This document shows, in pieces, positions 2,834 to 60,285 of a stretch of 64,000 nucleotides of DNA. The notes beneath the pieces were generated by a model. The model did no database searches, was not told the origin of the DNA, and saw only the letters and a program-made list of their open reading frames with translations. Within the stretch, counting starts at the first letter, position 1; the number at the start of each line of letters is the position of its first letter. Origin of the DNA: a virus. Lineage: Duplodnaviria > Heunggongvirae > Uroviricota > Caudoviricetes. The stretch lies in the IMG/VR virus record IMGVR_UViG_2718217789_000006. One strand, written 5' to 3'. The position numbers and the translations under genes were made by a program.

Positions 2834-3273
2834 ACTTTGTCCTGAAACTGGCGCGAGAGATGGGGAGACCCGACTGGCGCGCCATGCTTGCCGGGATGAC
2901 ATCCACCGAATATGCCGACTGGCGACGTTTTTACTGCACGCATTATTTTCAGGATACCCAACTGGACGCTCATTTTTCCGGGCTGATGTACGCCGTACTC
3001 AGCCTGTTTTTTGGCGATCCGGATATGCATCCGGCGGATTTCAGTCTGCTTGCTCCAGCGTGTGAGGAAGAGCAGACGGAGATGCCGGACGAGGAAGAAA
3101 TGCTGATGCAGAAAGCGACAGGAGTTGCCGGAGGCGTCCGGTTCGGAGGGGACGGAGGGCGCGATATTTCACCTTCTGCGGATGTGGTGGATGTCAGCGA
3201 GGATGATGTTGCATTAATGATGGCTTCAGCGGGGATTTCCGGAGGTGTGAGATATGTCCCAGCCAGCGGGTGA
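2411..3273 (+). CDS. T: Tail assembly protein G-T, product of programmed -1 ribosomal frameshift
   Basis: T frame (ending 3273) is the -1 frame relative to G and is open upstream of its first ATG through the heptamer A_AAA_AAG at 2809..2815; -1 reading gives ...KKAFEGELNFVLKLAREMGRPDWRAMLAGMTSTEYADWRRFY... Confidence 0.75.
2809..2815 (+). promoter_or_regulatory. Slippery heptamer A_AAA_AAG for the G to G-T -1 frameshift
   Basis: In-frame X_XXY_YYZ motif in the G reading frame at the G/T overlap; lambda uses G_GGA_AAG at the same position. Confidence 0.7.
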
Positions 3274-5866
3274 TCTGGTTATTGATTTGAGTCTGGATGC
3301 GGCCCGGTTTGATGAACAGATGGCCCGGGTACGCCGTCATTTTTCCAGTCTGGAGGCGGATGCCAGAAAAACCGCCAGTACTGTTGAACAGGGGCTGAGC
3401 CGACAGGCGCTGGCGGCACAAAAAGCCGGGATATCAGTCGGACAGTATAAGGCTGCCATGCGCACACTGCCCGCACAGTTCACGGATATTGTCACTCAGC
3501 TTGCCGGTGGTCAGAATCCCTTCCTTATCATGCTGCAGCAGGGGGGGCAGATCAGCGATTCATTCGGTGGACCGCTCAGCCTGCTTACCCTGCTGAAGGA
3601 GGAACTTCTCGGGATCAGGGATGCCTCTGAATCATCAGAGGAGTCGCTGTCAGATACGGCAAATGCACTGGCTGAAAATGCCCGGAATGCCGGTGAGCTG
3701 GGACGATTTATGTCGGTGGCCCGTGTGGCGGCAGGTGGCGGGGTTGCCGTACTGGCCGCGCTTGCTGCCGCCGCCTGGCAGGCAGAGCAGGCTGACCGGG
3801 CCTTATTGCGTTCACTGATCCTGACCGGAGGGGCGGCTGCCACCACAACGGCAGAATTGTGGAAAATGGCCGGGGTGATCAGCGATGAAGCCGGTGGTGG
3901 TATCAGACAGGCGGCAGAAAATCTGGCCCGTCTGGCAGAAAGCGGGAAATATACCGCCGGGCAGCTACGGATCATGGGGGAAACCTCTCAGAGATGGCTG
4001 CAGACGGTGGGGGACGATGCCGGGAAGGTGGAAAAAGCCTTTGAAGGGATTGCAGCAGATCTGGTGAAGGCGCTGGCCTCCCTGAATCAGCAGTATAACT
4101 TCCTGAGCGTTTCCCAGTTACGCCATATTGATGAGCTTGAGCGCACGAAAGGTAAACAGGTTGCGGTGACGGAGGCGATGTCCCTGTTTGCGGATGTCAT
4201 GAATGCACGTCTGGAGCAACTTGATAAAGCGGCCACGCCGGTGGAAAAAATCTGGGACGATGTTAAAACCTGGACTTCTGACGCATGGGCATGGATAGGT
4301 GATCATACACTGGGGGCACTCAGTCTGATCACTGACGTGGTGGCCGGAACCGTTGAACAAGTGAAGCTGCTGCTTGTGCAGGGGGATCTGGCGCTGGCTG
4401 AATTTATTCAGTCAGCCTGGGAAACGACAAAGAATGTGCCCGGCGTTGGTGCGTTGTTTGGTGAACTGGCAGAAGAGAACCGCGTATTTATTGAGAAAAC
4501 AAAACGCGATGAACTGGCGCTGAGAAAATCCATTGCGGAACGGGATGCGCGTATACGCCAGGGGGAAATGGGGTACATCAACCGCTCGCGTGCAACAGGC
4601 GTCAGCAAAGGTCCGGGGCAGCAGGAAGCCGTCAGCCGTCTGGCTGAAGAGCTGACAGGTAAAAAGCATACATCACCGAAAACGCGCTCTGCCGGGGAGA
4701 GGGAAGAGGAGCAGGCAAGAGAGGCTCTGCTTGCCCTTGAAGCTGAGCTCAGGACGCTGGAAAAACACAGCGGTGCGAATGAGAAAATCAGCCGGCAGCG
4801 CCGTGATTTATGGAAGGCGGAAAGTCAGTATGCGGTCCTGAAAGAGGCTGCCACGAAACGACAGTTATCTGAGCAGGAAAAATCCCTGCTGGCGCATAAA
4901 GACGAGACGCTGGAGTACAAACGCCAGCTGGCTGAGCTGGGCGACAAGGTTGAATACCAGAAACGCCTGAATGAGCTGGCACAGCAGGCGGTGCGGTTTG
5001 AAGAGCAGCAGAGCGCGAAGCAGGCCGCCATCAGCGCAAAAGCCCGCGGTCTCACTGACCGTCAGGCGCAGCGGGAGTCTGAAGCGCAGCGTCTTCGGGA
5101 CGTGTACGGTGATAATCCGGCTGCGCTGGCGAAGGCCACATCGGCACTGAAGAACACCAGGTCTGCGGAGGAGCAGCTTCGTGGAAGCTGGATGGCCGGG
5201 CTGAAGTCCGGCTGGGGCGAGTGGGCGGAAAGTGCGACGGACAGTTTTTCGCAGGTTAAAAGTGCTGCCACGCAGACCTTTGACGGTATTGCACAGAATA
5301 TGGCGGCGATGCTGACCGGTGCAGAGGCAGACTGGCGGGGATTCACCCGTTCGGTGCTGTCCATGATGACAGAAATCCTGCTTAAACAGGCCATGGTGGG
5401 CATTGTCGGGCGTATCGGCAGCGCCATTGGCGGTGCTTTCGGTGGTGGTGCATCTGCTTCCTCGGGGACGGCCATTCAGGCTGCGGCGGCGAACTTCCAT
5501 TTCGCGACCGGAGGATTTACGGGGACGGGCGGCAAATATGAGCCTGCGGGGATAGTTCACCGCGGGGAGTTTGTTTTCACGAAAGAGGCAACCAGCCGGA
5601 TAGGTGTGGGGAATCTTTACCGTCTGATGCGCGGCTATGCGGAAGGTGGTTATGTGGGTGGTGCCGGAAGTCCGGCGCAGATGCGGCGGGCGGAAGGTAT
5701 TAATTTTAATCAGAACAATCACGTGGTGATTCAGAACGACGGCACCAACGGACAGGCGGGGCCGCAGCTGATGAAGGCGGTGTATGACATGGCCCGCAAG
5801 GGGGCGCAGGATGAGCTCCGGCTGCAGTTGCGTGATGGCGGTATGTTATCGGGGAGCGGGCGATGA
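3254..5866 (+). CDS. H: Tail tape measure protein H
   Basis: 870 aa; N- and C-terminal regions (…LSRQALAAQKAGISVGQYKAAMRTLPAQFTD…; …AMVGIVGRIGSAIGG…HFATGGFTGTGGKYEPAGIVHRGEFVFTKEATSRIG…) match lambda gpH as recalled; GGAGG RBS; overlaps end of T. Confidence 0.9.
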   Translation: MSQPAGDLVIDLSLDAARFDEQMARVRRHFSSLEADARKTASTVEQGLSRQALAAQKAGISVGQYKAAMRTLPAQFTDIVTQLAGGQNPFLIMLQQGGQISDSFGGPLSLLTLLKEELLGIRDASESSEESLSDTANALAENARNAGELGRFMSVARVAAGGGVAVLAALAAAAWQAEQADRALLRSLILTGGAAATTTAELWKMAGVISDEAGGGIRQAAENLARLAESGKYTAGQLRIMGETSQRWLQTVGDDAGKVEKAFEGIAADLVKALASLNQQYNFLSVSQLRHIDELERTKGKQVAVTEAMSLFADVMNARLEQLDKAATPVEKIWDDVKTWTSDAWAWIGDHTLGALSLITDVVAGTVEQVKLLLVQGDLALAEFIQSAWETTKNVPGVGALFGELAEENRVFIEKTKRDELALRKSIAERDARIRQGEMGYINRSRATGVSKGPGQQEAVSRLAEELTGKKHTSPKTRSAGEREEEQAREALLALEAELRTLEKHSGANEKISRQRRDLWKAESQYAVLKEAATKRQLSEQEKSLLAHKDETLEYKRQLAELGDKVEYQKRLNELAQQAVRFEEQQSAKQAAISAKARGLTDRQAQRESEAQRLRDVYGDNPAALAKATSALKNTRSAEEQLRGSWMAGLKSGWGEWAESATDSFSQVKSAATQTFDGIAQNMAAMLTGAEADWRGFTRSVLSMMTEILLKQAMVGIVGRIGSAIGGAFGGGASASSGTAIQAAAANFHFATGGFTGTGGKYEPAGIVHRGEFVFTKEATSRIGVGNLYRLMRGYAEGGYVGGAGSPAQMRRAEGINFNQNNHVVIQNDGTNGQAGPQLMKAVYDMARKGAQDELRLQLRDGGMLSGSGR

Positions 5867-6192
5867 AAACCTTTCGCTGGAAAGTGAAGCCGGATATGGA
5901 GGTGAACTCGCAGCCATCGGTGCGTGAAGTGCGTTTTGGTGACGGGTACTCACAGCGTATGGCGGCAGGGCTGAATGCTGACCTGAAAACATACCGTGTG
6001 ACGCTTTCCGTGACCCGGGAGGAGGCCCGGCATCTGGAAGCGTTCCTGGCAGAGCACGGAGGCTGGAAGGCATTTTTGTGGAAGCCACCCTATGCATACC
6101 GGCAGATAAAGGTGACCTGTGCCGGGTGGTCTGCGCGGGTCGGGATGTTGCGCGTTGAGTTCAGCGCGGAGTTTAAGCAGGTGGTGAACTGA
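5863..6192 (+). CDS. M: Minor tail protein M
   Basis: 109 aa, MKTFRWKVKP...YRVTLSV...KVTCAGWSARVGMLRVEFSAEFKQVVN, lambda gpM-like. Confidence 0.9.
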   Translation: MKTFRWKVKPDMEVNSQPSVREVRFGDGYSQRMAAGLNADLKTYRVTLSVTREEARHLEAFLAEHGGWKAFLWKPPYAYRQIKVTCAGWSARVGMLRVEFSAEFKQVVN

Positions 6193-6890
6193 TGCAGGAT
6201 ATTCACGGGGAAAGCCTGATCGAGTCGGTTAAATCAGAGCAGTCACCGCGGGTGGTGCTCTGGGAAATCGACCTGACGGTGCAGGGTGGTGAGCGGTATT
6301 TTTTCTGCAATGAGCTGAATGAAAAAGGGGAGGCGGTTACCTGGCAGGGGCGGGAATATCAGGCATACCCGATTGACGGCAGCGGTTTTGAGATGAACGG
6401 GAAGGGCAGCAGTGCCCGCCCGTCGCTGACGGTGTCGAATCTGTTCGGTCTGGTCACCGGAATGGCGGAGGACCTGCAGAGCCTGGTGGGGGCCACGGTG
6501 GTCCGCCGCCGGGTGTATGCCCGTTTTCTGGATGCGGTGAATTTTGTGGCGGGCAATCCGGAAGCGGACCCGGAGCAGGAGCTGAGCGACCGCTGGGTGG
6601 TGGAGCAGATGTCAGAGCTGACGGCCATGACAGCCTCGTTTGTGCTGGCAACACCGACGGAGACGGACGGAGCGCTGTTTCCCGGTCGCATTATGCTGGC
6701 GAATACCTGTATGTGGGATTACCGGGGAGATGAATGCGGGTATAACGGTCCTGCGGTGGCGGATGAGTTCGACAACCCCACCACGGATATCCGTAAGGAC
6801 AGATGCAGCAAGTGCATGCGCGGGTGTGAGATGCGCGGCATGGTGGCTAATTTTGGCGGTTTCCTTTCCATCAATAAACTTTCGCAGTAA
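6192..6890 (+). CDS. L: Minor tail protein L
   Basis: 232 aa, ...VVLWEIDLT...GERYFFCNE...FPGRIMLANTCMWDYRGDECGY...FGGFLSINKLSQ, lambda gpL-like. Confidence 0.9.
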   Translation: MQDIHGESLIESVKSEQSPRVVLWEIDLTVQGGERYFFCNELNEKGEAVTWQGREYQAYPIDGSGFEMNGKGSSARPSLTVSNLFGLVTGMAEDLQSLVGATVVRRRVYARFLDAVNFVAGNPEADPEQELSDRWVVEQMSELTAMTASFVLATPTETDGALFPGRIMLANTCMWDYRGDECGYNGPAVADEFDNPTTDIRKDRCSKCMRGCEMRGMVANFGGFLSINKLSQ

Positions 6891-6900
6891 ATCCTGTTTT

Positions 6901-7644
6901 ATGACACAGACTGAATCAGCGATTCTGGTGCATGCCCGGCGGTGTGCGCCTGCGGAGTCGTGCGGCTTCGTGATAGGCACCCCGGAGGGCGAACGGTACC
7001 AGCCCTGCGTGAATATCTCCGCAGAGCCGGAGGCGTATTTTCGTATTGCGCCGGAAGACTGGCTGCAGGCAGAGATGCAGGGGGAGATTGTGGCGCTGGT
7101 TCACAGCCACCCTGGTGGTCTGCCCTGGCTGAGCGAGGCCGACCGGCGGCTGCAGATAAAGAGTGCCCTGCCCTGGTGGCTGGTCTGCCGGGGGGAAATT
7201 CATAAATTCCGCTGTGTGCCGCACCTGACCGGGCGTCGTTTTGAGCACGGGGTGACGGACTGTTACACCCTGTTCCGGGATGCATACCATCTGGCGGGGA
7301 TAACGCTGCCGGATTTTGAGCGTGAGGATGACTGGTGGCGCAACGGTCAGAACCTTTACCTGGACAATATGGCGGCGACTGGTTTTTACCGGGTGCCCCT
7401 GTCCTCTGCACAGGCGGGCGATATCCTGCTGTGCTGCTTTGGCGCATCGGTGGCCAATCATGCCGCCATATACTGCGGCAACGGTGAACTGCTTCACCAT
7501 CTGCCTGAACAACTGAGTAAACGGGAGAGGTATTCTGAAAAATGGCAACGACGAACGCATTCTGTCTGGCGTCACCGCCACTGGCACGCATCTGCCTTCA
7601 CGGGGATTTGCAACGATTTGGCCGCCGCCTCAGCCTGTACGTGA
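6901..7644 (+). CDS. K: Tail assembly protein K (JAB/MPN plus NlpC/P60-like domains)
   Basis: Starts at ATG 6901 (MTQTESAILVHARRCAPAESCGFV...HSHPGG...); the ORF-track start at 6640 is an upstream in-frame extension overlapping L and is rejected. Confidence 0.9.
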   Translation: MTQTESAILVHARRCAPAESCGFVIGTPEGERYQPCVNISAEPEAYFRIAPEDWLQAEMQGEIVALVHSHPGGLPWLSEADRRLQIKSALPWWLVCRGEIHKFRCVPHLTGRRFEHGVTDCYTLFRDAYHLAGITLPDFEREDDWWRNGQNLYLDNMAATGFYRVPLSSAQAGDILLCCFGASVANHAAIYCGNGELLHHLPEQLSKRERYSEKWQRRTHSVWRHRHWHASAFTGICNDLAAASACT

Positions 7645-8219
7645 ACACGGCAGCGGAAGCCATCCGTGCCCTGTCGCTGCAGATGCCGGGATTCCGCCGT
7701 CAGATGAACGAAGGCTGGTACCAGATACGTATTCGCGGTGAGGACACGGCACCGGAGGCGGTGTACGCCCGTCTTCACGAACCTCTGGGTGAGGGGGCGG
7801 TCATCCATATTGTGCCGCGACTGGCCGGAGCCGGAAAGGGCGGACTGCAGATTGTGCTGGGGGCAGCAGCCATCGTGGGCTCTTTCTTCACCGCCGGCGC
7901 AACGATGGCGTTGTGGGGCGCAGCCCTGAGTGCCGGAGGGCTGACTGCCACCACGATGCTGTTCTCACTGGGTGCCAGCATGATACTGGGCGGTGTGGCC
8001 CAGATGCTGGCACCGAAGGCAAAAACACCGGAGTACAGGGCGACGGATAACGGTAAACAGAACACGTATTTTTCGTCACTGGATAACATGATTGCCCAGG
8101 GGAACCCGATGCCGGTGCCTTATGGTGAAATGCTGGTTGGTTCACGACGGATATCCCAGGACATCAGCACCCGTGATGAGGGCGGAGACGGGAAAGTGGT
8201 GGTTATCGGGCGGGGATGA
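7542..8219 (+). CDS. I: Tail assembly protein I
   Basis: 225 aa, ...ICLHGDLQRFGRR...AVIHIVPRLAGAGKGG...GKQNTYFSSLDNMIAQGNPMPVPYGEM..., lambda gpI-like; overlaps 3' end of K. Confidence 0.85.
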   Translation: MATTNAFCLASPPLARICLHGDLQRFGRRLSLYVNTAAEAIRALSLQMPGFRRQMNEGWYQIRIRGEDTAPEAVYARLHEPLGEGAVIHIVPRLAGAGKGGLQIVLGAAAIVGSFFTAGATMALWGAALSAGGLTATTMLFSLGASMILGGVAQMLAPKAKTPEYRATDNGKQNTYFSSLDNMIAQGNPMPVPYGEMLVGSRRISQDISTRDEGGDGKVVVIGRG

Positions 8220-8264
8220 AAATAAAAAAATCCCGCAGAGTTAGCGGAGCTGCGGGAGAGAACG

Positions 8265-8384
8265 ATGAAGATTAACGTTATGGAGTTATTTTTCAGGCAT
8301 CAAAAAAGTAATGCAGCGTCATTATTGCGGCTACAGGCAATTGCCGGAAATGTGAAGAGTTTCAGAAATTTTATTCCGTCATGA
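8265..8384 (+). CDS. Hypothetical 39-aa protein in an AT-rich insert between I and J
   Basis: ATG with GGGAGAG upstream; MKINVMELFFRHQKSNAASLLRLQAIAGNVKSFRNFIPS; bracketed by two GC-rich hairpins; no homology recognised. Confidence 0.25.
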   Translation: MKINVMELFFRHQKSNAASLLRLQAIAGNVKSFRNFIPS

Positions 8385-8459
8385 CACAGGCACCCTCCGG
8401 GGTGCCTGTTGTTTTCTGGCATAAACAGATTCAGACATCAGACAGGAGAGGGGGACAGA

Positions 8460-20896: not shown

Positions 20897-21011
20897 TGAT
20901 AAACCTCATTACAGATTTAAGGGTGAACAAATCCCTGCCATTGCTGGCATTTTTAATCCGTTGGTATGGTGTTAATATGGCTGGAGGGTTATCCAGCCGG
21001 TGTTTCGTTAT

Positions 21012-21179
21012 TCAGGTACAGCGATACTTTTTTTTTACCGGGAGGCATTCACCAGAAATTTTTTGCTCGTCTCTTGCCTGGAGGCAGGATTCTTTACTGG
21101 CATAAATTCCGGTAATCACATTCTGTGATTCACCCGTTATAAGAAAAACCGTCATCATCAGTGCAAATGCTGAAGTCAT
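21012..21179 (-). CDS. YdfD-like small protein with hydrophobic N-terminus
   Basis: 55 aa (below ORF-track cutoff), MTSAFALMMTVFLITGESQNVITG...; start overlaps the dicB stop (ATGA); position matches ydfD after dicB in Qin. Confidence 0.45.
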   Translation of the reverse strand: MTSAFALMMTVFLITGESQNVITGIYASKESCLQARDEQKISGECLPVKKKYRCT

Positions 21180-49142: not shown

Positions 49143-49477
49143 ACTTTGTCCTGAAACTGGCGCGTGAGATGGGGAGAGCCGACTGGCGCGCCATGCTTGC
49201 CGGGATGACATCCACCGAATATGCCGACTGGCGACGTTTTTACTGCACGCATTATTTTCAGGATACCCAGCTGGATATGCATTTTTCCGGGCTGATGTAC
49301 GCCGTACTCAGCCTGTTTTTTTGCGATCCGGATATGCATCCGGCGGATTTCAGCCTGTTCGCTCCGGAGGCAGAGGAAGGACAGGCGGAGACGCCGGACG
49401 AAAATGATGTACTGATGCAGAAGGCGGCGGGCCTCGCCGGTGGAGTCCGTTTCGGGGAGGAGGGAAGGAGGTTGTGA
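48720..49477 (+). CDS. T: Tail assembly protein G-T via -1 frameshift at A_AAA_AAG (49118..49124)
   Basis: Same slippery heptamer and frame relationship as copy A; the T C-terminus diverges and is shorter than in copy A. Confidence 0.7.
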
Positions 49478-49520: not shown

Positions 49521-52166
49521 ATGGCAGGTAATTTTGCCGATCTGACAGCCGTGCTGACACTGGATTCTGCCCGTTTTTCTGAAGAGGCAGCGCGGGTAAA
49601 AAAAGAGCTGGGTGAAACCAGTGCGCTTGCTGATTTGATGTCCGGGAAAGTCAGTCAGTCTTTCAGAAAACAGGCTGATGCTGCTGAGCAGAGTCTGAGC
49701 CGACAGGCGCTGGCGGCACAAAAAGCCGGGATATCAGTCGGACAGTATAAGGCTGCCATGCGCACACTGCCCGCACAGTTCACGGATATTGTCACTCAGC
49801 TTGCCGGTGGTCAGAATCCCTTCCTTATCATGCTGCAGCAGGGGGGGCAGATCAGCGATTCATTCGGTGGACCGCTCAGCCTGCTTACCCTGCTGAAGGA
49901 GGAACTTCTCGGGATCAGGGATGCCTCTGAATCATCAGAGGAGTCGCTGTCAGATACGGCAAATGCACTGGCTGAAAATGCCCGGAATGCCGGTGAGCTG
50001 GGACGATTTATGTCGGTGGCCCGTGTGGCGGCAGGTGGCGGGGTTGCCGTACTGGCCGCGCTTGCTGCCGCCGCCTGGCAGGCAGAGCAGGCTGACCGGG
50101 CCTTATTGCGTTCACTGATCCTGACCGGAGGGGCGGCTGCCACCACAACGGCAGAATTGTGGAAAATGGCCGGGGTGATCAGCGATGAAGCCGGTGGTGG
50201 TATCAGACAGGCGGCAGAAAATCTGGCCCGTCTGGCAGAAAGCGGGAAATATACCGCCGGGCAGCTACGGATCATGGGGGAAACCTCTCAGAGATGGCTG
50301 CAGACGGTGGGGGACGATGCCGGGAAGGTGGAAAAAGCCTTTGAAGGGATTGCAGCAGATCCGGTGAAGGCGCTGGCCTCCCTGAATCAGCAGTATAACT
50401 TCCTGAGCGTTTCCCAGTTACGCCATATTGATGAGCTTGAGCGCACGAAAGGTAAACAGGCTGCGGTGACGGAGGCGATGTCCCTGTTTGCGGATGTCAT
50501 GAATGCACGTCTGGAGCAACTTGATAAAGCGGCCACGCCGGTGGAAAAAATCTGGGACGATGTTAAAACCTGGACTTCTGACGCATGGGCATGGATAGGT
50601 GATCATACACTGGGGGCACTCAGTCTGATCACTGACGTGGTGGCCGGAACCGTTGAACAGGTGAAGCTGCTGCTTGTGCAGGGGGATCTGGCGCTGGCTG
50701 AATTTATTCAGTCAGCCTGGGAAACGACAAAGAATGTGCCCGGCGTTGGTGCGTTGTTTGGTGAACTGGCAGAAGAGAACCGCGTATTTATTGAGAAAAC
50801 AAAACGCGATGAACTGGCGCTGAGAAAATCCATTGCGGAACGGGATGCGCGTATACGCCAGGGGGAAATGGGGTACATCAACCGCTCGCGTGCAACAGGC
50901 GTCAGCAAAGGTCCTGGGCAGCAGGAAGCCGTCAGCCGTCTGGCTGAAGAGCTGACAGGTAAAAAGTATACATCACCGAAAACGCGCTCTGCCGGGGAGA
51001 GGGAAGAGGAGCAGGCAAGAGAGGCTCTGCTTGCCCTTGAAGCTGAGCTCAGGACGCTGGAAAAACACAGCGGTGCGAATGAGAAAATTAGCCGGCAGCG
51101 CCGTGATTTATGGAAGGCGGAAAGTCAGTATGCGGTCCTGAAAGAGGCTGCCACGAAACGGCAGTTATCCGGGCAGGAAAAATCCCTGCTGGCCCATGAG
51201 AAAGAGACGCTGGAGTACAAACGCCAGCTGGCTGAGCTGGGCGACAAGGTTGAATACCAGAAACGCCTGAATGAGCTGGCACAGCAGGCGGTGCGGTTTG
51301 AAGAGCAGCAGAGCGCGAAGCAGGCCGCCATCAGCGCAAAAGCCCGCGGTCTCACTGACCGTCAGGCGCAGCGGGAGTCTGAAGCGCAGCGTCTTCGGGA
51401 CGTGTACGGTGATAATCCGCAGGCGCTGGCCCGGGTCACCGGGGCACTGAAACAGACATGGGCGGATGAAGACATGCTGCGCGGTGACTGGCTGGCCGGG
51501 CTGAAGTCCGGCTGGGGGGAGTGGGCGGAAAGTGCGACGGACAGTTTTTCGCAGGTTAAAAGTGCTGCCACGCAGACCTTTGACGGTATTGCACAGAATA
51601 TGGCGGCGATGCTGACCGGTGCAGAGGCAGACTGGCGGGGATTCACCCGTTCGGTGCTGTCCATGATGACAGAAATCCTGCTTAAACAGGCCATGGTGGG
51701 CATTGTCGGGCGTATCGGCAGCGCCATTGGCGGTGCTTTCGGTGGTGGTGCATCTGCTTCCTCGGGGACGGCCATTGAGGCTGCGGCGGCGAACTTCCAT
51801 TTCGCGACCGGAGGATTTACGGGGACGGGCGGCAAATATGAGCCTGCGGGGATAGTTCACCGCGGGGAGTTTGTTTTCACGAAAGAGGCAACCAGCCGGA
51901 TAGGTGTGGGGAATCTTTACCGTCTGATGCGCGGCTATGCGGAAGGTGGTTATGTGGGTGGTGCCGGAAGTCCGGCGCAGATGCGGCGGGCGGAAGGTAT
52001 TAATTTTAATCAGAACAATCACGTGGTGATTCAGAACGACGGTATCAACGGACAGGCGGGGCCGCAGCTGATGAAGGCGGTGTATGACATGGCCCGCAAG
52101 GGGGCGCAGGATGAGCTCCGGCTGCAGTTGCGTGATGGCGGTATGTTATCAGGGAGCGGGCGATGA
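49521..52166 (+). CDS. H: Tail tape measure protein H
   Basis: ATG 49521 with AGGAGGTG RBS; N-terminal ~60 aa differ from copy A, remainder near-identical. Confidence 0.9.
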   Translation: MAGNFADLTAVLTLDSARFSEEAARVKKELGETSALADLMSGKVSQSFRKQADAAEQSLSRQALAAQKAGISVGQYKAAMRTLPAQFTDIVTQLAGGQNPFLIMLQQGGQISDSFGGPLSLLTLLKEELLGIRDASESSEESLSDTANALAENARNAGELGRFMSVARVAAGGGVAVLAALAAAAWQAEQADRALLRSLILTGGAAATTTAELWKMAGVISDEAGGGIRQAAENLARLAESGKYTAGQLRIMGETSQRWLQTVGDDAGKVEKAFEGIAADPVKALASLNQQYNFLSVSQLRHIDELERTKGKQAAVTEAMSLFADVMNARLEQLDKAATPVEKIWDDVKTWTSDAWAWIGDHTLGALSLITDVVAGTVEQVKLLLVQGDLALAEFIQSAWETTKNVPGVGALFGELAEENRVFIEKTKRDELALRKSIAERDARIRQGEMGYINRSRATGVSKGPGQQEAVSRLAEELTGKKYTSPKTRSAGEREEEQAREALLALEAELRTLEKHSGANEKISRQRRDLWKAESQYAVLKEAATKRQLSGQEKSLLAHEKETLEYKRQLAELGDKVEYQKRLNELAQQAVRFEEQQSAKQAAISAKARGLTDRQAQRESEAQRLRDVYGDNPQALARVTGALKQTWADEDMLRGDWLAGLKSGWGEWAESATDSFSQVKSAATQTFDGIAQNMAAMLTGAEADWRGFTRSVLSMMTEILLKQAMVGIVGRIGSAIGGAFGGGASASSGTAIEAAAANFHFATGGFTGTGGKYEPAGIVHRGEFVFTKEATSRIGVGNLYRLMRGYAEGGYVGGAGSPAQMRRAEGINFNQNNHVVIQNDGINGQAGPQLMKAVYDMARKGAQDELRLQLRDGGMLSGSGR

Positions 52167-52492
52167 AAACATTTCGCTGGAAAGTGAAGCCGGATATGGA
52201 GGTGAACTCGCAGCCATCGGTGCGTGAAGTGCGTTTTGGTGACGGGTACTCACAGCGTATGGCGGCAGGGCTGAATGCTGACCTGAAAACATACCGTGTG
52301 ACGCTTTCCGTGACCCGGGAGGAGGCCCGGCATCTGGAAGCGTTCCTGGCAGAGCACGGAGGCTGGAAGGCATTTTTGTGGAAGCCACCCTATGCATACC
52401 GGCAGATAAAGGTGACCTGTGCCGGGTGGTCTGCGCGGGTCGGGATGTTGCGCGTTGAGTTCAGCGCGGAGTTTAAGCAGGTGGTGAACTGA
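52163..52492 (+). CDS. M: Minor tail protein M
   Basis: Identical protein to 5863..6192. Confidence 0.9.
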   Translation: MKTFRWKVKPDMEVNSQPSVREVRFGDGYSQRMAAGLNADLKTYRVTLSVTREEARHLEAFLAEHGGWKAFLWKPPYAYRQIKVTCAGWSARVGMLRVEFSAEFKQVVN

Positions 52493-53190
52493 TGCAGGAT
52501 ATTCACGGGGAAAGCCTGATCGAGTCGGTTAAATCAGAGCAGTCACCGCGGGTGGTGCTCTGGGAAATCGACCTGACGGTGCAGGGTGGTGAGCGGTATT
52601 TTTTCTGCAATGAGCTGAATGAAAAAGGGGAGGCGGTTACCTGGCAGGGGCGGGAATATCAGGCATACCCGATTGACGGCAGCGGTTTTGAGATGAACGG
52701 GAAGGGCAGCAGTGCCCGCCCGTCGCTGACGGTGTCGAATCTGTTCGGTCTGGTCACCGGAATGGCGGAGGACCTGCAGAGCCTGGTGGGGGCCACGGTG
52801 GTCCGCCGCCGGGTGTATGCCCGTTTTCTGGATGCGGTGAATTTTGTGGCGGGCAATCCGGAAGCGGACCCGGAGCAGGAGCTGAGCGACCGCTGGGTGG
52901 TGGAGCAGATGTCAGAGCTGACGGCCATGACAGCCTCGTTTGTGCTGGCAACACCGACGGAGACGGACGGAGCGCTGTTTCCCGGTCGCATTATGCTGGC
53001 GAATACCTGTATGTGGGATTACCGGGGAGATGAATGCGGGTATAACGGTCCTGCGGTGGCGGATGAGTTCGACAACCCCACCACGGATATCCGTAAGGAC
53101 AGATGCAGCAAGTGCATGCGCGGGTGTGAGATGCGCGGCATGGTGGCTAATTTTGGCGGTTTCCTTTCCATCAATAAACTTTCGCAGTAA
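52492..53190 (+). CDS. L: Minor tail protein L
   Basis: Identical protein to 6192..6890. Confidence 0.9.
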   Translation: MQDIHGESLIESVKSEQSPRVVLWEIDLTVQGGERYFFCNELNEKGEAVTWQGREYQAYPIDGSGFEMNGKGSSARPSLTVSNLFGLVTGMAEDLQSLVGATVVRRRVYARFLDAVNFVAGNPEADPEQELSDRWVVEQMSELTAMTASFVLATPTETDGALFPGRIMLANTCMWDYRGDECGYNGPAVADEFDNPTTDIRKDRCSKCMRGCEMRGMVANFGGFLSINKLSQ

Positions 53191-53200
53191 ATCCTGTTTT

Positions 53201-53944
53201 ATGACACAGACTGAATCAGCGATTCTGGTGCATGCCCGGCGGTGTGCGCCTGCGGAGTCGTGCGGCTTCGTGATAGGCACCCCGGAGGGCGAACGGTACC
53301 AGCCCTGCGTGAATATCTCCGCAGAGCCGGAGGCGTATTTTCGTATTGCGCCGGAAGACTGGCTGCAGGCAGAGATGCAGGGGGAGATTGTGGCGCTGGT
53401 TCACAGCCACCCTGGTGGTCTGCCCTGGCTGAGCGAGGCCGACCGGCGGCTGCAGATAAAGAGTGCCCTGCCCTGGTGGCTGGTCTGCCGGGGGGAAATT
53501 CATAAATTCCGCTGTGTGCCGCACCTGACCGGGCGTCGTTTTGAGCACGGGGTGACGGACTGTTACACCCTGTTCCGGGATGCATACCATCTGGCGGGGA
53601 TAACGCTGCCGGATTTTGAGCGTGAGGATGACTGGTGGCGCAACGGTCAGAACCTTTACCTGGACAATATGGCGGCGACTGGTTTTTACCGGGTGCCCCT
53701 GTCCTCTGCACAGGCGGGCGATATCCTGCTGTGCTGCTTTGGCGCATCGGTGGCCAATCATGCCGCCATATACTGCGGCAACGGTGAACTGCTTCACCAT
53801 CTGCCTGAACAACTGAGTAAACGGGAGAGGTATTCTGAAAAATGGCAACGACGAACGCATTCTGTCTGGCGTCACCGCCACTGGCACGCATCTGCCTTCA
53901 CGGGGATTTGCAACGATTTGGCCGCCGCCTCAGCCTGTACGTGA
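53201..53944 (+). CDS. K: Tail assembly protein K
   Basis: Identical to 6901..7644. Confidence 0.9.
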   Translation: MTQTESAILVHARRCAPAESCGFVIGTPEGERYQPCVNISAEPEAYFRIAPEDWLQAEMQGEIVALVHSHPGGLPWLSEADRRLQIKSALPWWLVCRGEIHKFRCVPHLTGRRFEHGVTDCYTLFRDAYHLAGITLPDFEREDDWWRNGQNLYLDNMAATGFYRVPLSSAQAGDILLCCFGASVANHAAIYCGNGELLHHLPEQLSKRERYSEKWQRRTHSVWRHRHWHASAFTGICNDLAAASACT

Positions 53945-54519
53945 ACACGGCAGCGGAAGCCATCCGTGCCCTGTCGCTGCAGATGCCGGGATTCCGCCGT
54001 CAGATGAACGAAGGCTGGTACCAGATACGTATTCGCGGTGAGGACACGGCACCGGAGGCGGTGTACGCCCGTCTTCACGAACCTCTGGGTGAGGGGGCGG
54101 TCATCCATATTGTGCCGCGACTGGCCGGAGCCGGAAAGGGCGGACTGCAGATTGTGCTGGGGGCAGCAGCCATCGTGGGCTCTTTCTTCACCGCCGGCGC
54201 AACGATGGCGTTGTGGGGCGCAGCCCTGAGTGCCGGAGGGCTGACTGCCACCACGATGCTGTTCTCACTGGGTGCCAGCATGATACTGGGCGGTGTGGCC
54301 CAGATGCTGGCACCGAAGGCAAAAACACCGGAGTACAGGGCGACGGATAACGGTAAACAGAACACGTATTTTTCGTCACTGGATAACATGATTGCCCAGG
54401 GGAACCCGATGCCGGTGCCTTATGGTGAAATGCTGGTTGGTTCACGACGGATATCCCAGGACATCAGCACCCGTGATGAGGGCGGAGACGGGAAAGTGGT
54501 GGTTATCGGGCGGGGATGA
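53842..54519 (+). CDS. I: Tail assembly protein I
   Basis: Identical to 7542..8219. Confidence 0.85.
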   Translation: MATTNAFCLASPPLARICLHGDLQRFGRRLSLYVNTAAEAIRALSLQMPGFRRQMNEGWYQIRIRGEDTAPEAVYARLHEPLGEGAVIHIVPRLAGAGKGGLQIVLGAAAIVGSFFTAGATMALWGAALSAGGLTATTMLFSLGASMILGGVAQMLAPKAKTPEYRATDNGKQNTYFSSLDNMIAQGNPMPVPYGEMLVGSRRISQDISTRDEGGDGKVVVIGRG

Positions 54520-54759
54520 AAATAAAAAAATCCCGCAGAGTTAGCGGAGCTGCGGGAGAGAACGATGAAGATTAACGTTATGGAGTTATTTTTCAGGCAT
54601 CAAAAAAGTAATGCAGCGTCATTATTGCGGCTACAGGCAATTGCCGGAAATGTGAAGAGTTTCAGAAATTTTATTCCGTCATGACACAGGCACCCTCCGG
54701 GGTGCCTGTTGTTTTCTGGCATAAACAGATTCAGACATCAGACAGGAGAGGGGGACAGA

Positions 54760-57700
54760 GTGGGTAAAGGGGGCGGCAAGGGGCACACGCCGGTAGAGGC
54801 AAAGGACAATCTTAAGTCCACGCAGATGATGAGCGTGATTGACGCCATTGGTGAAGGGCCGATTGAAGGTCCGGTGAAGGGGCTGCAGAGTATTCTGGTG
54901 AACAAAACCCCACTGACGGACACGGACGGCAATCCCGTGATACATGGTGTGACAGCGGTCTGGCGCGCCGGGGAGCAGGAGCAGACACCACCTGAAGGCT
55001 TTGAGTCCTCCGGGGCGGAAACCGCACTGGGCGTGGAAGTGACGAAGGCAAAGCCGGTGACGCGCACCATTACGTCCGCGAACATTGACCGCCTGCGGGT
55101 CACCTTCGGGGTGCAGTCACTGTTGGAGACCACCTCAAAGGGCGACCGTAATCACTCTTCTGTCCGACTGCTGATTCAGTTGCAGCGTAACGGTAACTGG
55201 GTGACGGAAAAGGATGTCACCATTAACGGCAAGACCACCTCGCAGTTTCTGGCGTCGGTGATTCTGGATAATCTGCCTGAGCGGCCCTTTAACATCCGGA
55301 TGGTCCGGGAGACAGCGGACAGCACCTCGGACCAGCTGCAGAATAAGACGCTCTGGTCGTCATACACCGAAATCATCGATGTGAAACAGTGCTACCCGAA
55401 CACGGCGATTGTGGGGCTGCAGGTGGATGCGGAGCAGTTTGGCGGTCAGCAGATGACGGTGAACTACCATATCCGCGGTCGCATCATCCAGGTACCGTCA
55501 AACTATGACCCGGAAAAACGCACGTACAGCGGCATCTGGGACGGCAGCCTGAAACCGGCATACAGCAACAACCCTGCCTGGTGCCTGTGGGACATGCTGA
55601 CCCACCCGCGCTACGGAATGGGAAAACGCCTGGGGGCGGCGGATGTGGACAAGTGGGCGCTGTATGCCATTGCGCAGTACTGCGACCAGACGGTCCCGGA
55701 TGGTTTCGGGGGCACAGAGCCGCGGATGACTTTCAATGCGTACCTGTCACAACAGCGTAAGGCGTGGGACGTTCTCAGTGATTTCTGCTCGGCGATGCGC
55801 TGTATGCCGGTATGGAACGGGCAGACGCTGACGTTTGTGCAGGACCGTCCGTCAGATGTGGTGTGGCCCTACACCAGCAGTGATGTGGTGGTGGATGATA
55901 ACGGCGTGGGGTTTCGCTACAGCTTCAGCGCCCTGAAGGACCGCCACACGGCGGTGGAGGTGAATTACACCGACCCGCAGAACGGCTGGCAGACCTCCAC
56001 GGAACTGGTGGAAGACCCGGAAGCCATACTGCGCTACGGACGCAACCTGCTGAAGATGGATGCGTTCGGCTGCACCAGTCGCGGTCAGGCCCACCGTGCC
56101 GGGCTGTGGGTGATAAAGACCGGACTGCTGGAAACGCAGACGGTGGATTTCACGCTCGGGTCACAGGGGCTGCGTCACACACCCGGTGACATTATTGAAA
56201 TCTGTGATAACGACTATGCCGGGACCATGACCGGCGGACGTATCCTGTCCATCGATGCCGCCAGCCGCACCCTGACACTGGACCGTGAGGTGACCCTGCC
56301 GGAGACCGGTGCCGCCACGGTGAACCTGATTAACGGCAGCGGTAAGCCGGTGAGCGTGGCCATCACTGCACACCCCGCGCCGGACCGGATACAGGTCAGC
56401 ACCCTGCCTGATGGCGTGGAGACATACGGTGTGTGGGGGCTCTCCCTGCCGTCACTGCGCCGTCGCCTGTTCCGCTGTGTCTCCGTCCGGGAAAACACGG
56501 ACGGCACCTTTGCCATCACGGCGGTGCAGCACGTACCGGAAAAAGAAGCCATCGTGGATAACGGGGCGCACTTTGACGGCGACCAGAGCGGCACCCTGAA
56601 CAGCGTCATCCCTCCGGCAGTGCAGCACCTGACGGTGGAGGTGAGTGCAGCTGACAGCCAGTATCTGGCGCAGGCGAAATGGGACACGCCGCGGGTGGTG
56701 AAGGGCGTGCGCTTCAGTCTGCGCCTGACCAGTGGAAGCGGTCAGGACAGCCGTCTGGTGACCACCGCCATCACTGCGGATACAGAGCATCGTTTCAGTG
56801 GTCTGCCGCTCGGGGAATACACCCTGACAGTCAGGGCAATTAACAGTTATGGCCAGCAGGGGGAACCGGCCATCACCACCTTCCGGATTAACGCGCCAGC
56901 AAAACCCGCCACCATTGAACTGACGCCGGGGTATTTTCAGATAACGGCGGTACCGGTGCTGGCGGTGTATGACCCGACGGTGCAGTTTGAGTTCTGGTTT
57001 TCGGAAAAAACGCATCACGAACACGGCACAGGTGGAAAAATCTGCCCGTTATCTGGGGAGCGGCAGTCAGTGGACTGTCCAGGGAAGCCGGATTAAGCCG
57101 GGGACGGATTTCTGGTTTTACGTGCGCAGCGTCAACCTGGTGGGGAAATCTGCGTTTGTGGAAGTCAGCGGGCAGCCCAGCAATGATGGTGAAGGGTATC
57201 TGGAATTTTTCCGGGAAAAAATAGGAAAACTGCATCTGGCTCAGGGGCTATGGGAGCTGATAGACAACAGCCAGCTTGCGGATGAGATGGCGGAGATGAA
57301 GACCACCATCACGGAAACCCGCAATGAAATCACACAGACGGTCAGTAAAACGCTGGAGAACCAGAGCGCCACTATACAGCAGATACAGCGCGTGCAGAAG
57401 GACACAAATGATGACCTGGCTGCGCTGTACATGCTGAAGGTTCAAAAAACGAAAGACGGCATTCCCTATGTGGCCGGGATTGGTGCAGGGATTGAGGATA
57501 CTGATGGCCAGCCACTGAGCAACATACTGCTGCTGGCTGACCGTATCGCGATGATAAATCCGGAGAGCGGCAACAGCACGCCGTTATTTGTGGCGCAGGG
57601 GAATCAGCTGTTCATGAACGACGTGTTCCTGAAGCGACTGTTTGCGGTGAGTATCACCTCGTCCGGCAATCCCCCGACGTTTTCCCTGACGCCGGACGGG

Positions 57701-58240
57701 CGACTGACGGCGAAAAATGCGGATATCAGTGGCAGTGTGAATGCGAACTCAGGGACGCTCAACAACGTCACGATTAATGAGAACTGTCAGATTAAGGGGA
57801 AACTGTCAGCCAACCAGATTGAAGGCGATATTGTCAAAACGGTCAGCAAGTCTTTCCCCCGCACGAGCACTTATGCCAGTGGCACCATCACGGTAAGAAT
57901 CAGTGATGATCAGAAGTTTGACCGGCAGGTCATGATACCGCCAGTGTTATTCCGCGGTGGTAAGCATGAGAATTTCAACAGTAATAACCAACAGTCATAC
58001 TGGTATTCAACCTGCCGGTTAAGAGTGACCCGCAATGGTCAGGAGATTTTTAATCAGTCCACGACGGATGCTCAGGGCGTATTTTCCTCAGTTATAGATA
58101 TGCCTGCCGGACAGGGGACGCTGACACTGACATTCACCGTATCTTCATCAGGAGCGAATAACTGGACACCAACAACCAGTATCAGCGATCTGCTGGTTGT
58201 GGTGATGAAAAAATCCACAGCAGGTATCAGTATCAGCTGA
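54760..58240 (+). pseudogene. J: Tail tip protein J disrupted by a +1 frameshift in a poly-A tract
   Basis: Co-linear with 8460..11939, but the A5 run at 10705..10709 is A6 at 57005..57010; the N-terminal reading frame stops at 57096 and the C-terminal part continues in another frame to 58240. Confidence 0.8.
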
Positions 58241-58307
58241 ATTTTATAACCCATATACGGGCGCCAGAAATGGCGCCTTTTTTATTGCAGAAAAGCGAGA
58301 GGTAATT

Positions 58308-58907
58308 ATGCGTAAACTTTATGCCGCCATTTTGTCCGCAGCCATCTGTCTGGCCGTATCCGGCGCGCCTGCATGGGCGTCTGAGCAGCAGGCCACGCTG
58401 AGCGCGGGGTATCTTCATGCCCGGACGAGCGCTCCCGGTAGCGATAATCTTAACGGGATTAACGTGAAATACCGTTATGAGTTTACGGACACACTGGGGA
58501 TGGTGACGTCATTCAGCTATGCAGGAGACAGGAATCGCCAGCTTACCCGTTACAGCGATACCCGCTGGCATGAAGATTCCGTGCGTAACCGCTGGTTCAG
58601 CGTGATGGCGGGGCCCTCTGTGCGCGTGAATGAATGGTTCAGCGCGTATGCGATGGCGGGTGTGGCTTACAGCCGTGTGTCGACTTTCTCCGGGGATTAT
58701 CTCCGCGTAACTGACAACAAGGGGAAAACGCATGATGTGCTGACCGGAAGTGATGACGGTCGCCACAGCAACACGTCTCTGGCGTGGGGAGCTGGCGTGC
58801 AGTTTAACCCGACCGAATCCGTGGCCATTGATATTGCTTATGAAGGCTCCGGCAGTGGCGACTGGCGCACTGACGGCTTCATCGTGGGTGTCGGCTATAA
58901 ATTCTGA
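58308..58907 (+). CDS. lom: Outer membrane protein Lom
   Basis: Identical protein to 12007..12606. Confidence 0.9.
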
Positions 58908-58971
58908 TTAGCCAGGTAACACAGTGTTATGACAGCCCGCCGGTTCAGGCGGGCTTTTTTGTGGGGTGAAT

Positions 58972-60285
58972 ATGGCAGTAAAGATTTCAGGTGTACTGAA
59001 AGACGGCACAGGAAAACCGGTAGAGAACTGCACCATTCAACTGAAAGCCAGACGGACCAGCAGCACGGTGGTGGTGAACACGGTGGCCTCTGAAAATCCG
59101 GATGAAGCCGGTCGTTACAGCATGGACGTTGAGTACGGTCAGTACAGCGTCATTCTGTTGGTGGAAGGATTCCCGCCGTCACATGCCGGGACTATCACCG
59201 TGTATGAAGATTCTCAACCCGGTACGCTGAATGATTTTCTCGGTGCCATGTCGGAGGATGACGTCCGGCCGGAGGCACTGCGTCGTTTTGAACTGATGGT
59301 GGAAGAAGCGGCGCGTCACGCTGAGGAGGCGAAGAAGAATGCCGGAGAGGCGGAGACGTCCGCGAGGAATGCCGGCATATCAGCCAGTCAGGCAGAAGAG
59401 AGCGCGGCAAATGCTGACACTTCAGCAGGGGATGCATCGGAGTCAGCCCGGCAGGCGGCAGAAAGTGCAGCCGCTGCAAAGCAGTCAGAGGAGGCGTCCT
59501 CGTCCTCGGCCTCTGCGGCCGCTCAAAAAGCCAGTGAGTCATCACAAAGTGCAGCAGATGCTGAGTTGTCAAAAAAGACGGCAGAAAGTGCAGCCGGTAA
59601 TGCAGCCAGGGATGCAACGACCGCAACAGAAAAAGCCCGGGAGTCAGCAGAAAGCGCACAGTCAGCGGAACAAAGCAGGATAGCGGCGGAAGAGGCCGTA
59701 AACCGAATCCCCACGGTGGTGGGGCCTCCCGGGCCAAAGGGGGAACCGGGTCCCGCGGGTCCTCAGGGGCCGAAGGGAGATAAAGGAGAGCGTGGAGACA
59801 CCGGCCCGGCAGGGGCAACCGGTGAAAGGGGACCGGCAGGTGATGCTGGTCCGGCAGGCCCGCAGGGGCCGAAAGGTGACAGGGGAGGGCGGGGAGAGAC
59901 CGGTCTGACGGGAAATGCAGGTCCACAGGGTCCAAAGGGAGATACCGGTGCGGCAGGCCCGGCAGGCCCACAGGGACCGAAAGGAGAAACAGGTGCGGCT
60001 GGCCCGGTGGGGGCAACCGGACCTCAGGGGCCGAAGGGCGACCCGGGGGAGACGCAAATACGGTTCCGTCTGGGGCCGGGAAACATTATTGAGACAAACA
60101 GCCATGGCTGGTTCCCGGATACAGATGGCGCACTCATCACCGGACTGACCTTTCTTGACCCCAAAGATGCCACACGGGTTCAGGGTTTTTTTCAGCATTT
60201 GCAGGTCAGGTTTGGTGACGGGCCGTGGCAGGATGTTAAGGGGCTGGATGAAGTGGGCAGTGATACAGGCAGAACAGGAGAATGA
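58972..60285 (+). CDS. stf: Side tail fibre protein with collagen-like repeats (30 aa longer than copy A)
   Basis: Same N- and C-termini as 12671..13894 with an extra block of Gly-X-Y triplets. Confidence 0.85.

Follow-up and report, generated by a model that had tools for sequence, protein, structure and literature searches.

In bacteriophage lambda, tip attachment and host specificity are functions of gpJ, and the best Sakai match to the J protein analyzed here is a protein of prophage Sp11 that bears the annotation "host specificity protein". Two described phenomena bear on a J gene that is interrupted at a homopolymer. One is the homopolymer indel error of PacBio RS II sequencing with Quiver polishing, which creates spurious "frameshifted" pseudogenes; the other is the genuine homopolymer pseudogene of O157 prophages, of which a DUF1482 gene appears to be an example and in which a change in run length breaks a prophage ORF. 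Homopolymers are also known as functional elements: homopolymeric contingency tracts are typically 7-9 nt or longer, and transcriptional slippage requires runs of about 9 or more.

Here, we analyze a J gene with one extra A in a window of 64,000 nucleotides of viral DNA (the whole stretch under study; IMG/VR record IMGVR_UViG_2718217789_000006). The window holds two copies of J. Copy A shares its full domain set and its gene order with lambda gpJ; compared with lambda gpJ, copy B is split at residue 765 in the window, is intact in the current reference and otherwise shows nothing unusual. As in PacBio RS II/Quiver homopolymer errors, the insertion is private to one assembly, which is probably an unpolished one. 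Unlike the usual long-read homopolymer errors, however, it affects a tract of only five A, and its occurrence at this one tract in two assemblies suggests an effect that depends on context. The likeness to the DUF1482 gene is that a change in run length breaks the ORF; in contrast to the extra A in J, the long run in DUF1482 is still found in the revised release as well as in a sister genome. Altogether, we conclude that the frameshift in J is most likely not a real feature of the organism but a sequencing error, since put right in the public record.

The J genes of two lambdoid prophages

The window consists of the right arm of a lambdoid prophage (prophage A) followed by an entire second lambdoid prophage (prophage B). 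Prophage A contributes tail genes, J, lom, a tail fibre gene and three genes for NleG-like effectors. Prophage B starts with int (16861-18156, minus strand) and continues with replication, lysis, head and tail genes, J, lom, a tail fibre gene and nleC. The two prophages have ~10 kb in common at 99.45% identity. More importantly, a 7.6-kb stretch is identical in both except for the extra A (Table 1), while the homologous sequence flanking it differs by 0.5-3% between the prophages. Based on this comparison of sequences, the identity over 7.6 kb next to more divergent flanks suggests recent gene conversion between prophages A and B. Large chromosomal rearrangements have been described for Escherichia coli strain 9000, the strain to which the window corresponds (see below), and repeats of this type serve as substrates for them (PMC8743559).

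Table 1. Positions of the J genes, their A tracts and the shared 7.6-kb stretch in the window
Feature	Position	Strand	Comment
7.6-kb stretch, prophage B (M, L, K, I, J, lom, 5' end of tail fibre gene)	52172..59804	+	Identical to 5872-13503 except for the extra A
Matching 7.6-kb stretch, prophage A	5872..13503	+	
J copy A, intact, 1159 aa	8460..11939	+	WP_072643152.1 / API31775.1
A5 tract in J of prophage A	10705..10709	+	Gene intact
J copy B, 5' part, 778 aa from GTG	54760..57096	+	FNIII-A, Phage-tail_3, Ig_J and first third of Ig_J_second
A6 homopolymer in J of prophage B	57005..57010	+	One A more than copy A and every close relative
J copy B, 3' part, displaced frame	57011..58240	+	Rest of Ig_J_second, Phage_Tail_Tip and Ig_GpJ_C (C-terminal receptor-binding); covering ORF 56969..58240

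The two copies of J were compared directly, which made an estimate of chance unnecessary. In a MAFFT alignment, they differ at a single position in 3531/3532 nt, the extra A of copy B: copy A has ttcggAAAAAcgc at 10700-10712, and copy B has ttcggAAAAAAcgc at 57000-57013. In the ORF list, copy A is uninterrupted (8409..11939) and encodes 1176 aa when counted from a TTG or 1159 aa when counted from the GTG at 8460, which is the start used by RefSeq. The ORF of copy B (54709..57096) encodes 795 aa from the TTG or 778 aa from the GTG, and the 778-aa product ends with a short out-of-frame tail before a premature stop codon at 57094-57096; the rest of J can be read without a stop in a different frame. 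Thus, the initial annotation was correct in describing an intact J of 1176 aa in prophage A, a change from A5 to A6 in copy B, and a reading frame that ends at 57096 with the C-terminal part shifted into a different frame; the first and the last of these agree with the ORF list and the second with the sequence of both tracts and the alignment. The tract is one of 17 runs of at least five bases in J, three of which are in-frame A6 runs.

The surroundings of J follow the lambda gene order M-L-K-I-J-lom-tail fibre. Using Pfam, we found six gpJ domains above the gathering thresholds in copy A, i.e., FNIII-A_GpJ, Phage-tail_3, Ig_J, Ig_J_second, Phage_Tail_Tip and Ig_GpJ_C, and the same six domains divided between two frames in copy B. 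The extra A shifts the frame at residue 765 of 1159, within Ig-like domain 2 (residues 715-817), and the domains located 3' of it are Phage_Tail_Tip (872-999) and the C-terminal receptor-binding Ig_GpJ_C (1036-1159). If the extra A were real, prophage B would be unable to make a functional tail tip by itself.

The A tract in the current release and in relatives

For comparison, we took 64.6 kb of NZ_CP018252.2, the current genome sequence of E. coli O157:H7 PT21/28 strain 9000; the assembly of this strain in the collection is GCA_001890285.2, i.e., release 2. The whole 64-kb window aligns to positions 2785278-2849276 with no mismatches and a single gap, and this gap is the extra A. In NZ_CP018252.2, both J genes are annotated as intact and encode the same protein, WP_072643152.1, with the caveat that the tract is inside a 7.6-kb exact repeat in which short reads cannot be assigned to one copy, so that polishing could in principle homogenize a real difference between the copies.

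A 12-kb segment with the junction and a 24-kb segment with copy B of J are both ~100% identical to strain 9000 and to isolates of the "Z" series. Specifically, when 24,001 bases containing copy B are used as the query, strain 9000 and no fewer than 12 genomes of the Z series each match over 24,000 bases at ~100% identity. Copy B has A5 in at least 13 sister isolates. Among these is Z1615, in which copy B is intact and which came from cattle in a trial that used strain 9000 as the inoculum (PMC8743559). A regular-expression search over all fetched loci found A5 in every J of this allele, and the exact 1159-aa J protein is present at ~46 places in 24 genomes, about two in each.

On a larger scale, in a set of 5,426 complete genomes of E. 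coli, a 75-mer with A5 has 420 records in the band of at least 99% identity, and a 76-mer with A6 has a perfect match in one record, that of strain 155. The A6 tract was not found in any of the phage records matched. Neither the truncated product of 778 aa nor that of the downstream ORF (423 aa) is present in a collection of 15 billion proteins, as expected if the gene is annotated as a pseudogene. As a separate observation, in CP043011.1, an O157 genome with the same prophage B tail fibre gene, J (5489-8632 of the fetched locus, L006) and the tape-measure gene are fragmented into many small ORFs, as is typical of a noisy long-read assembly; the tract in this genome is still A5.

Based on the order of accessions, the window probably represents the first GenBank release of strain 9000, CP018252.1. 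In GenBank, the protein identifiers in genome order are API31729 for the tape-measure protein of prophage B (TMP_B), API31746 for a DUF6645 protein, API31775 for J and API31780 for the tape-measure protein of prophage A (TMP_A). Because the distance from J to the tape-measure gene is five genes, API31775 corresponds to copy A. API31724, the identifier expected for an intact copy B, is absent among the sorted identifiers of the J protein, which include a lone later one, QOJ42802.1. Similarly, the RefSeq identifiers from WP_072643146 to WP_072643153 rise monotonically along the genome, and that of J (ending in 152) stands between those of an exonuclease (151) and TMP_A (153), i.e., in the position of copy A, and not between those of the prophage B tail fibre protein (146) and TMP_B (147), i.e., not in the position of copy B. 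Together, the patterns of the GenBank and RefSeq identifiers indicate that copy B was probably not annotated as an intact CDS in release 1. In 2021, the group behind the 2016 sequencing of strain 9000 (see below) referred to CP018252.1 as the older reference and described the correction of PacBio homopolymer errors by means of Illumina reads, Pilon and manual editing (PMC8743559); release 2 is presumably the product of this correction.

Origin of the extra A

We suggest, with a probability of roughly 0.85, that the extra A is an uncorrected single-base insertion error in a PacBio-only, Quiver-polished consensus. According to this model, the consensus of a PacBio-only assembly, probably CP018252.1, would have gained an A in the tract of copy B, release 2 would have been made through the authors' Illumina-based and manual correction, and J of prophage B in the organism would be an intact gene with A5, the product of which would be the 1159-aa tail-tip protein that prophage A also encodes. 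As in long-read homopolymer errors, the change is an indel in a homopolymer, is the sole difference over the 3.5 kb of J and the shared 7.6 kb, and is absent from NZ_CP018252.2 and from the Z-series isolates, including Z1615. Because A5 and an intact J are present in release 2 as well as in the clonal relatives and descendants of strain 9000, the reading in the initial annotation that J of prophage B is frameshifted and yields no functional tail tip is most likely untrue of the organism. Of the three readings that it offered, i.e., a defective prophage, a slippage-prone switch and a homopolymer sequencing error, only the last is borne out by the A5 tracts in the current release and in the relatives.

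The one other genome with A6 is informative in this respect. In strain 155 (NZ_CP018237.1), the A6 tract is located in a different prophage, which carries espJ, and in a J allele that has 74 substitutions compared with J in the window and is labelled "frameshifted" by PGAP. In the same prophage, espJ (L001:17050-17704) has an insertion that changes T7 to T8 and frameshifts the effector, 5 kb from the frameshift in J. For the espJ region, strain 155 is the sole match of 761 bases, and the best matches listed of 628 genomes all have 760 bases; the T8 in espJ probably reflects a further error in a PacBio-only consensus. A pair of private +1 homopolymer insertions only 5 kb apart is the signature of residual long-read consensus error. 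Strains 155 and 9000 were sequenced in the same 2016 project, for which PacBio RS II reads, assembly with PBcR and Celera, and polishing with Quiver were described, and a short-read correction was not (PMC5359411). Random error alone would not predict that the same tract is hit twice, and the recurrence of +A at one tract speaks for a systematic error tied to the context or, with lower probability, for a mutational hot spot. We know of no O157 DNA-methylation motif that overlaps the tract and would fit as the cause of a PacBio error.

Alternatively, the extra A could be a genuine mutation that arose by slippage and is private to the clone or culture sequenced in 2016. It is, after all, present in the sequence of the window, single-base gains in short homopolymers are among the normal errors of replication, selection on prophage genes in a lysogen is weak, and the same prophage contains a homopolymer frameshift that appears genuine, i.e., the DUF1482 gene with A9 instead of A7, a change that release 2 and a sister genome also show. 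However, neither the current release of strain 9000 nor any isolate examined, including Z1615, has the extra A in J, and the mutation would have to be limited to one DNA preparation; moreover, the only other assembly with A6 has a further homopolymer insertion nearby. We therefore consider a private mutation unlikely. If it did occur, J of prophage B would end prematurely at residue 765 and lack the tail-tip fibre and the receptor-binding domain, and infectious particles of prophage B would require either that J of prophage A be supplied in trans or that gene conversion from the identical 7.6-kb tract restore the gene. Even then, the structural gene of a prophage would have undergone an ordinary private loss of function, while an identical and functional copy would be located 46 kb away. 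In a variant of this idea, GGAAAAACGC would be a real hot spot for +A, J would have been lost independently in prophage B of strain 9000 and in the espJ prophage of strain 155, and gene conversion from the neighbouring 7.6-kb tract would rapidly repair the loss. This would explain the A5 in the descendants; we nevertheless judge this chain of events to be very unlikely.

The two remaining readings assign a function to the tract. A slippage-prone contingency switch, by which tail-tip production of prophage B would be phase variable, is in line with a homopolymer that lies within a coding region and is one A longer in two assemblies. Nevertheless, we give it hardly any probability: 5-6 nt is far below the length of known homopolymeric contingency tracts, the length is essentially invariant (one record with A6 compared with the 420 in the band of at least 99% identity for the A5 75-mer, and no phage record), and both cases of A6 probably come from PacBio-only assemblies. 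No common ON/OFF length polymorphism was seen among the 5,426 genomes and the phage matches, and the tract is not special among the homopolymer runs of J. Thus, the switch proposed in the initial annotation finds no support. Full-length J could be restored at the A6 by programmed ribosomal frameshifting or by transcriptional slippage, considering that A-rich runs can be slippery and that the downstream frame is open through to the normal stop codon of J. However, repair of the frame needs a shift of +1 (or -2), while A-rich heptamers promote -1 shifts; the zero-frame codons are GAA AAA ACG rather than an X XXY YYZ heptamer; and transcriptional slippage calls for longer runs. The two-frame architecture is conserved in no relative, and the homologues are single ORFs. 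Motif, direction and conservation of two ORFs thus all differ from those of a programmed frameshift site. Specifically, -1 frameshifting on the A run was rejected by the arithmetic of the frames and the lack of conservation, and we regard the probability that full-length J is restored by any such mechanism as close to nil.

If the extra A is a sequencing error, as we favor, the main value of this analysis lies in quality control. Accepting the frameshift as it stands would mislabel one of the two tandem lambdoid prophages of strain 9000, a well-studied O157:H7 strain of PT21/28, as tail defective and would lead to wrong counts of pseudogenes and wrong calls of prophage intactness. Users of the sequence of the window should switch to CP018252.2.

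Effector cargo and other differences between the prophages

Both prophages carry type III effector cargo at their right ends (14279-16279 and 60986-61972): beyond the tail fibre gene, prophage A has the three NleG-like (DUF1076) genes, and prophage B has nleC. A 5'-truncated ydfJ (62717-64000) adjoins the end of prophage B and marks the integration site. Based on the RefSeq annotation, prophage B also contains a gene for a DNA cytosine methyltransferase next to one for a type II restriction endonuclease of the NgoMIV family (28286-30296) and, at 33570-34628, a gene for another DNA methyltransferase.

Two tail genes differ between the prophages. The ORF for tail assembly protein T has 102 aa in prophage B (49169-49471) compared with 137 aa in prophage A (2860-3273), and the prophage B protein is labelled incomplete by PGAP. 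The adjacent tape-measure protein of prophage B (49521-52166) has a different N-terminus and 881 aa compared with 870 aa in prophage A. Because exactly this TMP_B protein is present on 96 contigs, the differences in T and the tape-measure protein may represent a common mosaic variant rather than a defect.

Finally, the DUF1482 gene of prophage B (20989-21179, minus strand) has A9 compared with A7 in two intact paralogues (L011:15662-15850 and L007:19789-19977), which results in a +2 frameshift. The A9 is retained in CP018252.2 and in the sister isolate Z1814 (L005), and, judged by these sequences, it looks like a genuine homopolymer pseudogene.
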